The position numbers and the translations under genes are program-made. The notes under the pieces are model-generated. The model saw only the letters and a list, made by a program, of their open reading frames with translations, searched no databases and was not told where the DNA came from. Below, piece after piece: positions 3,011-7,316 of a stretch of 27,769 nt of DNA; within the stretch, counting starts at the first letter, position 1; each line of letters starts with the position of its first letter. Origin of the DNA: Nanobdellota archaeon (lineage in GTDB: Archaea > Nanobdellota > Nanobdellia > Woesearchaeales > JAHWHD01); contig JAYENX010000046.1 in NCBI GenBank assembly GCA_034722435.1, forward strand, positions 3,169 through 30,937, written 5' to 3'.

Positions 3011-3025
3011 AAAGGTTTTTAAATA
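3011..3025 (+). promoter_or_regulatory. BRE/TATA-like promoter of the tRNA-Arg gene
   Basis: AAAGG followed by TTTAAATA (3018-3025), about 24 nt upstream of the tRNA 5' end at 3049. Confidence 0.55.
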
Positions 3026-3048: not shown

Positions 3049-3277
3049 GCGCCTGTAGCCTAGTCTGGCGACTGGTTACGCTCAGTCGATTAACTTCGCA
3101 AAGCGAAGTTGAATTCGAATTACGAATTCAGCAAAGTGCGACAAATGAGTGTACCAACGGATAAATAAGGCACCAGCCTCCTAATAATTTAAGAGTAAGC
3201 TGGGGACCGGGGGTTCGAATAGCTAACGATTTCGGCAACACCTGAGATGCGGAGCTTCGAAAGTCCCCTCAGGCGCG
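3049..3277 (+). tRNA. tRNA-Arg(CCU) with three introns (exons 3049-3068, 3165-3183, 3198-3219, 3264-3277)
   Basis: Joined exons give a 75-nt cloverleaf: GCGCCTG TA GCCT AGTCTGGATA AGGC A CCAGC CTCCTAA GCTGG GGACC GGGGG TTCGAAT CCCCT CAGGCGC G, with perfect acceptor, D and anticodon stems, A20 and G73. Each junction falls in a BHB-like motif. Confidence 0.9.
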
Positions 3278-3286
3278 TTCTTTTTT
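3278..3286 (+). terminator. Oligo-T tract after tRNA-Arg
   Basis: TTCTTTTTT directly after the discriminator base, typical of archaeal intrinsic termination. Confidence 0.4.
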
Positions 3287-5486: not shown

Positions 5487-7316
5487 TTATTTAATCATAG
5501 TTTTTAAAAACTCTGCAATTTTTTTACCTTCTGCTTTACCCCTTAACTGACCCATAGCTTTGCCAATAACTACGTTGAATTTTTTGCCTTTATTTTTTGT
5601 TACAATATCTTTCAAGACAGTTTTTAACTCTAAGTCTGATAACAATTTATAATCATTAAACTCGACATGCTCCGCATTTGCAAATTTAAGAAGTATTTCG
5701 TCAACAGATTCTTTAGATATACGACTTTTGCTAAGGTGAAGCAATATCGCTTCAAATTCTTCCTCAGAAATACTTATATGTTCAATATTATGTTTTCTCT
5801 GCAACTCTTTAATTTTAGGAATCATGAGTTCGGCAATGAACGCAGGTTTAATAGTTTTGAATTTTTTAACAAAATCTTCAAAAACGTTAACTTTAGGTGA
5901 CTTTGCGATAAGATCTGCAAGGTCTTTTCCAAGACCTAATTTACGTTCGAATCTTAGAGATTTATCAGTAATTAACTCAGGAATGTAAATGTTAGAAGTG
6001 TCAGGTTTAATAGTTTTTATATCTGTCTCAGGGTACATACGCGCTGCACCAGGAATAGGACGCATGTATGAAGAGGTTGAATCTGAATTTGGTTTTCTTA
6101 CCTCCATAGGAATTCCTTGAAGAGTTTCCTCAGCTCGTTCAATAACTGCTCTTAATGCGAGATCTACTTTCCAAGGTTTATCTGCGACAATCACAAAGGC
6201 ATCTTCTTTATTACAATTAAGTTCTTTCCTTATGACATCAACATCTTTTTCAGTTATACCGTATTTAGGAAGTTCATCAGAATGAAATATACCTCCAACA
6301 CCAGATTTTATTTTTGCACGATCGCTAAACTCGGTGCCAAGCCTTCTTCCAGGCTGAAGCTCGCGACCCACAAATCCTGCAAACTTAGGAAGTCTGATTG
6401 CTCTCACGACACCGTTATCTGAAAGAGCGTTTTGAATAACTGTCGACTCTGAATCTTTGAATACAGGAGTAACATCGTGCAGAGTCTTAAGAAATTTGAT
6501 ACCTTTTGGAAGTTCTTTTTTGATATTCAAAAGATTAATTTGTCTGAATACTTCATACTCAACAAGTTTAGGGAGGGCTTTCAAGTCCTGAAAACCTTTT
6601 ACTTCAACTCTTGGACCGTCATGTATAGAAATATTTACGTCTTGTCTAATAGTTCCAAGGCCCCTTTTAGCTCCGCCAGTGCTTCGCAAAAGTAAACCAA
6701 GAGCTTCAGCTGCTTCTTTACATTGTTCAGGAGTTTTAATATCTGGTTCAGTGGAAAGTTCTATCAAAGGAATGCCAAGTCTATCAAGACGATAAACTAC
6801 TGTTGATTCGTTTCTGGATATATCTTTTGCAGAATCTTCCTCTACTAAAAGAGTTTTTATACGTACATCGCCTTGAGTAGTTTCAATTTTTCCACCCATA
6901 GAAACAAGAGCGGTTCTTTGAAAACCTGAAACGCATGAACCGTTAATTATAGTTTTACGCATTACCTGAATATCGTCAACAATCTTTGAACCCAGCATTA
7001 TTGAAACTTGTAATGCAGTGTTCAATGCGCACATGTTCATAGGTTTAGGTGGTTCCTCATCAAGTTCAACTAAACAAGTAGTATCAGAATAAGCTTCATA
7101 AATAAAAGTTTGTTGACGCTTTTTTTCATGAAGAGCTGCTATATCTATCTCTCCTAATTCGCCAGCTGATGCATGAAGGCGTCTTTTTATTGTGAAATCA
7201 GGTTTATCATCTCTTAGAATAGAAGGACAGTTACAGAAAAGTTTGCCTGTGTCGAGCTGTTGGTGTATCTCGATTCCGCATTTCAAACCAACCTCTTCAT
7301 AATTTATCTTTTCCAA
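5487..7316 (-). CDS. gatE: Glu-tRNA(Gln) amidotransferase subunit E
   Basis: GIEIHQQL, CLVELDEEPP, SGFQRT, EEDSA, YRLDRLGIPLIE, GLGTIRQDVNISI, GGIFHSDELP.YGI, YMRPIPGAARMYPETD. TTG start with AGGTGA RBS upstream (7324-7329). Confidence 0.97.
   Translation of the reverse strand: MEKINYEEVGLKCGIEIHQQLDTGKLFCNCPSILRDDKPDFTIKRRLHASAGELGEIDIAALHEKKRQQTFIYEAYSDTTCLVELDEEPPKPMNMCALNTALQVSIMLGSKIVDDIQVMRKTIINGSCVSGFQRTALVSMGGKIETTQGDVRIKTLLVEEDSAKDISRNESTVVYRLDRLGIPLIELSTEPDIKTPEQCKEAAEALGLLLRSTGGAKRGLGTIRQDVNISIHDGPRVEVKGFQDLKALPKLVEYEVFRQINLLNIKKELPKGIKFLKTLHDVTPVFKDSESTVIQNALSDNGVVRAIRLPKFAGFVGRELQPGRRLGTEFSDRAKIKSGVGGIFHSDELPKYGITEKDVDVIRKELNCNKEDAFVIVADKPWKVDLALRAVIERAEETLQGIPMEVRKPNSDSTSSYMRPIPGAARMYPETDIKTIKPDTSNIYIPELITDKSLRFERKLGLGKDLADLIAKSPKVNVFEDFVKKFKTIKPAFIAELMIPKIKELQRKHNIEHISISEEEFEAILLHLSKSRISKESVDEILLKFANAEHVEFNDYKLLSDLELKTVLKDIVTKNKGKKFNVVIGKAMGQLRGKAEGKKIAEFLKTMIK

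Follow-up and report, generated by a model that had tools for sequence, protein, structure and literature searches.

A tRNA-Arg(CCU) gene in four exons

The stretch of DNA analysed here (hereafter the window; 27,769 nt of contig C46, JAYENX010000046.1, assembly GCA_034722435.1) comes from a Woesearchaeota archaeon of the DPANN group (order Woesearchaeales). Positions 3049–3277 of the window are, judging from the sequence, very probably a functional tRNA-Arg(CCU) gene, whose four exons are separated by introns in the D-loop, the anticodon loop and the T-loop. The parts of the gene are the following:

3049–3068, + strand: exon 1, containing the acceptor 5′ strand, U8, the D-stem 5′ strand and the D-loop as far as G19
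3069–3164, + strand: intron 1, 96 nt, D-loop position 19/20, longer than any other of the 48 introns found in the genome
3165–3183, + strand: exon 2, from A20 to position 37, containing the end of the D-loop, the D-stem 3′ strand, the anticodon stem 5′ strand and the anticodon (C3180, C3181, T3182)
3184–3197, + strand: intron 2, 14 nt, canonical position 37/38, relaxed motif
3198–3219, + strand: exon 3, containing position 38, the anticodon stem 3′ strand, the variable loop, the T-stem 5′ strand and TTCGAA of the T-loop
3220–3263, + strand: intron 3, 44 nt, T-loop position 59/60, near-canonical hBHBh′ motif
3264–3277, + strand: exon 4, containing T60, the T-stem 3′ strand, the acceptor 3′ strand and the discriminator G73; CCA is not encoded

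When joined, the exons (20, 19, 22 and 14 nt) form a 75 nt cloverleaf tRNA-Arg(CCU) with an acceptor stem of 7 bp, a D-stem of 4 bp, an anticodon stem of 5 bp and a T-arm that reads GGGGG-TTCGAAT-CCCCT; all 21 stem pairs are intact. The anticodon loop is CTCCTAA, the variable loop has 5 nt and the discriminator is G. The predicted spliced junctions are CTGG/ATAAGG, CCTA/AGCTGG and TTCGAA/TCCCC (the slash marks the junction). The bases A20, C35 and a purine at position 73 are established arginine identity elements in the ArgRS systems of bacteria and yeast; A20 (A3165, the first base 3′ of intron 1), C35 and G73 (G3277) are all present here, and likewise in the orthologues. The exons are collinear within 229 nt; they do not lie at separate loci or in permuted order, as those of a split or permuted tRNA would.

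ARAGORN made no call in the unspliced locus, either with or without its intron mode, and the Rfam tRNA model RF00005 gave no match there even at E ≤ 10. When the eight possible combinations of intron removal were given to ARAGORN, Arg(cct) was called only if all three introns, or introns 1 and 3, had been taken out; with introns 1 and 3 removed, the intron mode located the 14 nt anticodon intron unaided. An initial annotation, made from the letters of the window, had proposed that excising 3069–3164, 3184–3197 and 3220–3263 yields a canonical 75 nt tRNA-Arg with A20 and G73, and the ARAGORN call agrees. The intron positions and the anticodon that it gave are supported both by ARAGORN and by intronless orthologues, its estimate that about 67% of the locus (154 of 229 nt) is intron is correct, and its forecast that standard finders would miss the gene holds for the two that were run. 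The locus is not a chance similarity, since its score in a scan for tRNA stems (33.5; see below) falls among those of true tRNAs and the intronless orthologues carry identical junction sequences.

The failure of ARAGORN and Rfam to detect anything in the unspliced locus can also be read as a sign that it is a tRNA pseudogene in decay, which three insertions have disrupted and which no longer yields a tRNA. The complete set of stem pairs and the presence of A20, C35 and G73 argue against this, as does the placement of the insertions, which lie exactly where 3 nt bulges flank 4 bp helices. If the gene were dead, AGG might still be read by tRNA-Arg(UCU) through wobble. However, no other CCU gene was found in the genome, whether by blastn-short with the spliced sequence (a check that the initial annotation had called for) or by the stem scan; 11 nt matches were seen at C36:22082 and C46:21117. 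AGG makes up 18% of the Arg codons in long open reading frames (ORFs), and this gene is apparently the only AGG-reading arginine tRNA gene of the genome. It has also retained signals that are likely to direct its transcription:

3011–3025, + strand: putative promoter, consisting of a purine-rich AAAGG (3011–3015) resembling a B recognition element, followed by the TATA-like box TTTTTAAATA (3016–3025)
3278–3286, + strand: likely archaeal terminator, the oligo-T run TTCTTTTTT

The TTTTTAAATA box lies 24–33 nt upstream of tRNA position 1. A box of the TTTAAATA/TTTATAAA type precedes many of the 31 tRNA genes of the genome at equal spacing, and is near-identical ahead of tRNA-Leu(UAA); T-runs are likewise found 3′ of many other tRNA genes.

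Structure of the three introns

All three introns can be folded into a motif of the bulge–helix–bulge (BHB) type, i.e. two 3 nt bulges around a 4 bp helix, or into its relaxed HBh′/BHL forms, and each helix and bulge described in the initial annotation was confirmed in the sequence. In intron 3 the outer helix is the T-stem itself (3209–3213/3265–3269), and the central helix, TTCG (3214–3217) with CGAA (3258–3261), consists of four Watson–Crick pairs. Its bulges are AAT (3218–3220) and AGT (3262–3264), and an inner helix of 4 bp follows (3221–3224/3253–3256), leaving T3257 unpaired. Since T3220 and T3264 are the same base, positions 59/60 and 60/61 are indistinguishable from the sequence. The central helix of intron 2 is CTCC/AGAG (3178–3181/3192–3195), with TAA in both bulges (the 3′ bulge at 3196–3198). 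For intron 1, GTCT (3063–3066) pairs with GGAT (3159–3162) through G·U, U-A, C-G and U·G; the 5′ bulge is GGC (3067–3069), the 3′ bulge AAA (3163–3165), and the outer pairs are 3062–3166 and 3061–3167. A fold constrained to contain the cloverleaf stems and the three BHB helices had an energy of −86.3 kcal/mol, as against −88.6 kcal/mol for the minimum free energy fold, a cost of 2.3 kcal/mol. When a simple BHB score was calculated for 27,645 possible placements in the locus, intron 3 ranked first.

Other identities were considered for the locus or for intron 1. A C/D-box sRNA in intron 1 was rejected, as neither a C box (RUGAUGA) nor a D box (CUGA) was seen in it by eye. The same holds for a known RNA family: Rfam searches of the unspliced locus and of intron 1 at E ≤ 10 returned only noise (PssrA, RsaJ), and eight homologous loci gave tRNAs alone.

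Orthologues with and without introns

A pattern search with exon 1, run over one genome per GTDB species, yielded 18 tRNA-Arg(CCU) genes of Woesearchaeota/Pacearchaeota, with zero to three introns. Intronless orthologues are identical to the spliced sequence at 66 of 75 positions in Woesearchaeota DRTY-6 (L151) and at 64 of 75 in CG07_land_44_23 (L163). Both run uninterrupted across the three predicted junctions (AGTCTGGATA, CTCCTAAG and TTC(G/A)AATC, respectively), with identical flanking bases. Exon 1 is the same as exon 1 of Woesearchaeota FT1_799 (L107) and positions 1–20 of L163, and shows one mismatch to L151. The three sites are also filled in L107 (introns of 21, 13 and 44 nt) and in SRP141376_co2_190 (L119; 91, 22 and 37 nt), while Woesearchaeota FT2_348 (L139, JAHWHG010000004.1) has only two introns, one of 129 nt in the D-loop and one of 67 nt in the anticodon loop. 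The L139 anticodon intron contains a C-box-like TGATGA, with no clear D box. The L107 and L139 sequences match, by eye, loci read in the unpublished genomes G001/G002; the claims made here rest on public genomes, except for a count over 401 genomes given below.

The interiors of the introns diverge among the orthologues, and the boundary helices are retained. The partner of GTCT in the D-loop intron is GGAT, GGGT, GGAC or GGGC in orthologues, and AGAC in the paralogous tRNA-Arg(UCU), so that pairing is always kept; the D-loop intron ends in AA in all orthologues and paralogues. The 13 nt anticodon intron of L107 forms a perfect CTCC/GGAG helix, and in the T-loop of L119 the change of exon G57 to A is matched by that of intron CGAA to TGAA. 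In the spliced sequences of 12 distinct orthologues, 250 of the 252 stem cells pair, and 11 of the 21 pairs show double-sided (compensatory) changes. That other species have the same split architecture, with compensatory stem changes, is a further argument against a pseudogene.

tRNA introns throughout the genome

The assembly comprises 1.30 Mb in 60 contigs (33% GC), and is estimated to be 94.5% complete. The detection of hidden tRNAs as GC islands proved too noisy, and a stem-block scan that permits long gaps in four loops was written for this genome instead; it misses introns inside stems, and the 31 genes it found are therefore a minimum. These 31 loci scored at least 31.5 and all the rest at most 29.5. 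After in-silico splicing, ARAGORN accepted all 31, with 31 different anticodons. Run on the genome as it stands, ARAGORN found four tRNAs without intron mode and made 13 calls when that mode was on. Of the latter, at least a Leu(taa) and a Pro(ggg) conflict with the stem scan at those loci; Rfam found 10 above threshold. By standard finders the genome would thus seem short of most tRNAs, although at least 31 genes are present, and tRNA counts in DPANN metagenome-assembled genomes will be too low unless multi-intron searches are run.

The 31 genes contain 48 introns: 19 in the anticodon loop (37/38), 17 in the T-loop (59/60), 10 in the D-loop and two in the variable loop. Gly(GCC), initiator Met and Thr(UGU) are the only ones free of introns, and five carry three each, namely Arg(CCU), Arg(UCU), Arg(UCG), Lys(UUU) and Ile(GAU). 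In the other three Arg isoacceptors, introns lie at the sites used in Arg(CCU), a gene that is typical of its genome save for having the longest intron. All 17 T-loop introns have four of four central pairs, with exon R57 covarying with the intron pyrimidine (11 G-C, 6 A-T). The eight central-helix mismatches found genome-wide are all in anticodon-loop introns, and several of the anticodon introns of 12–14 nt lack an inner helix. With 28 of 31 tRNA genes likewise interrupted, they cannot all be dead. One more point can be made for a pseudogene, namely that intron 1 includes one copy of a dispersed element, which at other places has left stubs of dead genes behind (see below); taken together, the evidence makes that explanation very improbable.

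Elsewhere in the window, an intronless tRNA-Thr(UGU) lies at 9–81, just 3′ of a run of N (a scaffold gap). It is followed, at 101–2973, by the genes of an adenylate kinase, a tRNA pseudouridine synthase of the TruD type and a 5′-nucleotidase, and a GatB/GatE-family gene with a GAD domain is located at 5487–7316 (− strand).

The splicing endonuclease and other processing enzymes

The genome contains one gene for the splicing endonuclease EndA (L001, G000:C58:48804-52064, positions 1474–2007, − strand). It codes for 177 aa with domains PF02778 and PF01974 and the Tyr-His-Lys triad. No second subunit was found by phmmer --max over ORFs of at least 50 aa or by Pfam at E ≤ 10; the next phmmer match had an E value of 0.068, and the best other matches were an ORF that looks PUA-like by eye and a 17-position fragment. 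The gene therefore has the characters of the alpha4 type: a single gene of about 170–180 aa with both domains and the triad, and no second subunit gene found. The protein aligns with the alpha4 EndA of M. jannaschii (1A79) over residues 9–177, the only gap being of one residue. Of its relatives with a solved structure, the best is the catalytic subunit of N. equitans, yet it lacks the Lys-rich Tyr-His loop of that protein: the Tyr-His spacing is 9 residues, as in M. jannaschii, versus 15 in N. equitans NEQ205, and a 6-residue gap lies opposite the NEQ205 loop PKKGKRSERE. None of the Lys/Arg-bearing insertions associated with broad specificity (L1/CSL, L2/ASL and L3/NEQ; L1, L2 and L3 are defined in PMC3488258 and PMC5829648) is present. 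The initial annotation had held that a relaxed-specificity endonuclease is needed, but once EndA was classified no known relaxed type was visible, only a short alpha-type protein without loops.

This is not peculiar to the host genome. Among 80 genomes of the order with a completeness of 90% or more, 77 gave exactly one EndA match, of the short alpha type without the L1/CSL, L2/ASL and L3/NEQ loops, and in most of the order genomes listed the 85 profile positions of the catalytic domain cover 261 nt. Nearly all EndA relatives are labelled Woesearchaeota/Nanoarchaeota, some being plainly mislabelled ‘Methanosarcinales’. Enzymes of the alpha4 type are reported to cut strict BHB motifs only (PMC3488258, PMC4033280). 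EndA is presumably a homotetramer here too, and, because introns 1 and 2 have relaxed motifs and many anticodon introns of 12–14 nt lack an inner helix, its specificity can be argued not to be strict.

A gene for RtcB was found at G000:C25:36993-38276 (E 2e-170), and one for a class-I CCA-adding enzyme elsewhere in the genome. An ORF resembling metallo-beta-lactamase/RNase Z (L001, 1979–2947, + strand) is divergent from the EndA gene, their 5′ ends overlapping; the two may form a small tRNA-processing pair.

From the exons, junctions, junction conservation, foldability of the three motifs and enzyme genes observed, the following pathway can be proposed. Transcription from the gene’s own TATA-box promoter would give a pre-tRNA of about 230 nt, in which three BHB-type motifs would form in the D-loop (19/20), the anticodon loop (37/38) and the T-loop (59/60). 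EndA would cut each bulge 3′ of its second nucleotide, and RtcB would ligate the four exons. RNase P and RNase Z would trim the ends, and the CCA enzyme would then add CCA, leaving a 75 nt tRNA that reads AGG.

Several points weigh against this reading. The splicing itself, the order of the cuts and the handling of two relaxed motifs by a single alpha-type EndA are inferred from the DNA sequence. The motif of intron 1 is weak, with two G·U pairs in its central helix and, in the end-to-end fold, the single pair G3070–C3158 before an internal loop. In intron 2, C3181·A3192 is a mismatch, the inner helix is nearly absent and the 5′ site adjoins a 7 nt end loop. The BHB scores of introns 2 and 1 rank only 106th and 219th of the 27,645 placements, which is weak taken alone; the boundaries of both introns rest mainly on the mature tRNA and the orthologues. 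The only EndA found, of alpha type and without the known specificity loops, is set against the relaxed motifs of the same two introns. Finally, at 94.5% completeness, a second CCU gene or a second EndA subunit could lie in the missing part of the assembly.

Relationships among the introns

Intron 3 shares about 82% identity (by eye) with its counterpart in the T-loop of tRNA-Leu(UAA), and a clear relationship also links it to the T-loop introns of two further Arg tRNAs. The genes concerned are:

C25:7057–7218, − strand: tRNA-Leu(UAA)
C16:4538–4712, − strand: tRNA-Arg(UCU)
C36:29305–29473, − strand: tRNA-Arg(UCG)

Their T-loop introns are 43–46 nt long, start with TAGYTRA and end with CTTCGAAAG. 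The T-stem of tRNA-Leu(UAA) is identical to that of tRNA-Arg(CCU), including a G·T pair. The likeness between the two genes suggests that the T-arm was copied between them together with the intron, and such sharing of introns is the pattern that has been termed intron transposition in the Thermoproteales (PMC4033280).

The D-loop introns of tRNA-Arg(UCG) (24 nt) and tRNA-Ile(GAU) have ACTGGTT near their start in common with intron 1, and the former has both ends in common with it (TGACTGGTT...GGATAA). Intron 1 is most plausibly a short intron of the D-loop (21–24 nt in paralogues and orthologues) to which hairpin modules of some 75 nt have been added. Its internal structures are:

3069–3088, + strand: hairpin A, at the 5′ end of intron 1, with stem CGACTG/CAGTCG and loop GTTACGCT
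3095–3099/3103–3107 and 3108–3117/3123–3132, + strand: two internal hairpins of the minimum free energy fold

Both internal hairpins are kept, with two-sided stem changes, in the 129 nt D-loop intron of L139.

The length of intron 1 raises the question of whether it might be removed in two steps, a nested intron of 54 nt (3091–3144) leaving first and the remaining 42 nt then forming the final BHB. The nested motif would consist of a 7 bp helix (3078–3084/3146–3152), the 3′ bulge AAA (3143–3145) and a 4 bp GTCG/CGAC helix (3085–3088/3139–3142); hairpin A competes with this inner helix, and could set the order of the two steps. By its BHB score (16.0) the placement 3091–3144 comes second in the locus, and the minimum free energy fold holds exactly that helix–bulge–helix. 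However, several plainly spurious placements also score 15–16, so that the score is not significant, and the 5′ site would fall in a multiloop. The GTCG/CGAC helix, moreover, is lost in the homologous introns of L139 and L119, which makes a nested intron there improbable, and the mature tRNA needs no such step. Removal of intron 1 in two steps is thus unlikely. A nested BHB intron bounding the 75 nt extra segment (3078–3152) was also considered and rejected, there being no 4 bp helix in register.

Hairpin A belongs to a dispersed family

The sequence of hairpin A recurs in other genomes of the order as a hairpin with stem NRACTG/CRGTYN and loop GTTACGCT, often followed by ACACGCAA. A scan of all GTDB species genomes for its 15-mer, CTGGTTACGCTCRGT, was swamped by chance bacterial matches, and was replaced by one restricted to the order and accompanied by a reversed control. 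The 15-mer was found in 55 of 401 genomes and 46 of 258 genera, with as many as 16 copies in one genome and frequently at the ends of contigs; the reversed pattern matched once in the 401 genomes. This set includes G002 and three further unpublished genomes. Hairpin A is present as a single copy in the host genome. Its two outer stem pairs covary (CG/TA/CA with CG/TA/TG). It has no match to an Rfam family, and a literature search for the sequence gave unrelated primer matches only. An integron attC core and an IS200/IS605 end were considered and set aside, the motif being unlike GTTRRRY and long direct repeats not being a known trait of IS605.

In introns of the D-, T- and anticodon loops of different tRNAs, the 15-mer lies 2–4 nt 3′ of the predicted 5′ splice site (L119, L309, L290, L295, L301 and L241), and the hairpin element is also listed inside an intron at L139. 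The region upstream of the L139 tRNA-Arg(CCU), as read in the matching G002 locus, holds a second copy of the hairpin-bearing module, as well as a decoy copy of exon 1 that ends in GCCATGG, not GTCTGG. The element is found outside introns at L292, L297, L302, L303, L308, L311, L312, L222 and L242. There the hairpin is located between a 13–26 nt copy of the end of a gene and the complete gene, the genes being tRNAs and two that code for proteins (L302 and L303). At L302 it is found at the start of a gene with an N-terminus resembling triose-phosphate isomerase, the duplicate matching at 25 of 26 positions; at L242 it stands in reverse orientation beside a tRNA. These arrangements suggest that hairpin A is part of a dispersed element family of Woesearchaeales, which is probably mobile. 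Being placed directly 3′ of the 5′ bulge, hairpin A may serve as the motif’s inner helix in intron 1; forcing it costs 1.7 kcal/mol in comparison with the end-to-end fold.

An origin for intron 1 that is compatible with a functional gene can be envisaged on this basis: a small and mobile element of DNA, bearing hairpin A terminally, would have inserted in the D-loop, the gene surviving since the insertion folds into a splice-competent form, and the 21–24 nt introns of its relatives would be deletion derivatives. The spread of the 15-mer over the order, in up to 16 copies and often at contig ends, fits this proposal, as do the offset of the hairpin (+2 to +4) in introns of three loop positions of different tRNAs, the 13–26 nt direct repeats of the adjoining gene end that flank the copies outside introns, the reversed copy at L242, and the 24 nt intron of tRNA-Arg(UCG) with both its ends in common with intron 1. 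On the other hand, no transposase or integrase was identified, the conserved part is only some 20–27 nt, and the hairpin is a single copy in the host genome; nor do the sequences tell an insertion into a mini-intron from a deletion out of a long intron. Such an origin is a serious candidate, with chances somewhat short of even.

A broader proposal, which we put forward tentatively and regard as rather unlikely, combines two parts. A non-coding mobile element, whose 5′ hairpin NRACTG-GTTACGCT-CRGTYN lands 3′ of the future 5′ bulge as an inner helix, would seed tRNA introns in the Woesearchaeales; intron 1 would be a captured copy, and the stubs beside duplicated gene ends the same element in an unspliceable context. 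A loop-less alpha-type EndA would in turn process all of the at least 48 introns, many with relaxed motifs. If this were true, the broad specificity of EndA would have a structural basis other than the three known loops. The locus unites a tRNA with three introns, an EndA of the simplest type (by current rules unfit for relaxed motifs), and an intron that contains the terminal hairpin of a dispersed element; it thereby raises the questions of where the broad specificity of EndA comes from, and of how archaeal tRNA introns arise and spread.

Comparison with known systems

Multi-intron tRNAs with BHB motifs are a kind already known, and one flagged for DPANN lineages in 2018. The initial annotation had described it as known mainly from Thermoproteales and ARMAN-type archaea; the kind is indeed known, but the host, a DPANN archaeon of the Woesearchaeota/Woesearchaeales, belongs to neither group. 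The multi-intron tRNA genes of the Thermoproteales (Sugahara et al. 2007, 2008; reviewed by Fujishima & Kanai 2014, PMC4033280) resemble those described here in having as many as three introns of BHB type in a gene, at canonical as well as non-canonical sites, and similar introns in different tRNAs. The host differs from them in its lineage and in its mesophile-type genome with 33% GC. Further, the Thermoproteales EndA is an (alpha-beta)2 enzyme with the Crenarchaea-specific loop, whereas here one alpha-type gene was found, without the loop.

The disrupted tRNAs of ARMAN-2/Micrarchaeota are spliced by an epsilon2 EndA (Fujishima 2011, PMC3239211; Hirata 2012, PMC3488258). ARMAN-2 is also a DPANN archaeon, and has non-canonical introns that include one in the T-loop (pre-tRNA-Cys). 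Its EndA, however, has 395 aa in three units, and K161 of the ASL loop gives it broad specificity, while the EndA described here has 177 aa. In a survey of DPANN archaea that included one Woesearchaeota genome, alpha4 EndAs with an L3 loop were tied to increased tRNA disruption, and incomplete tRNA sets were taken to indicate that disrupted genes had been overlooked (Kaneta et al. 2018, PMC5829648). The present genome is in line with that survey’s prediction that disrupted tRNAs go undetected in DPANN lineages newly sequenced; unlike the L3-loop enzymes of the survey, its EndA has no L3/NEQ-type insertion.

The sharing of a T-loop intron by the unrelated tRNAs Arg(CCU), Arg(UCU), Arg(UCG) and Leu(UAA) resembles the intron transposition described earlier (PMC4033280). 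A mobile element disrupting a tRNA gene has been reported in Caldiarchaeum subterraneum (Sugahara 2012, PMC3293823), and, as in that case, 5′ tRNA fragments remain beside the inserted element. The Woesearchaeales element is nevertheless of another type: it is about 70–130 nt long and non-coding, with a conserved 20 nt hairpin, rather than a 1.8 kb element that bears a recombinase, and it is also found at the starts of protein genes (L302 and L303).

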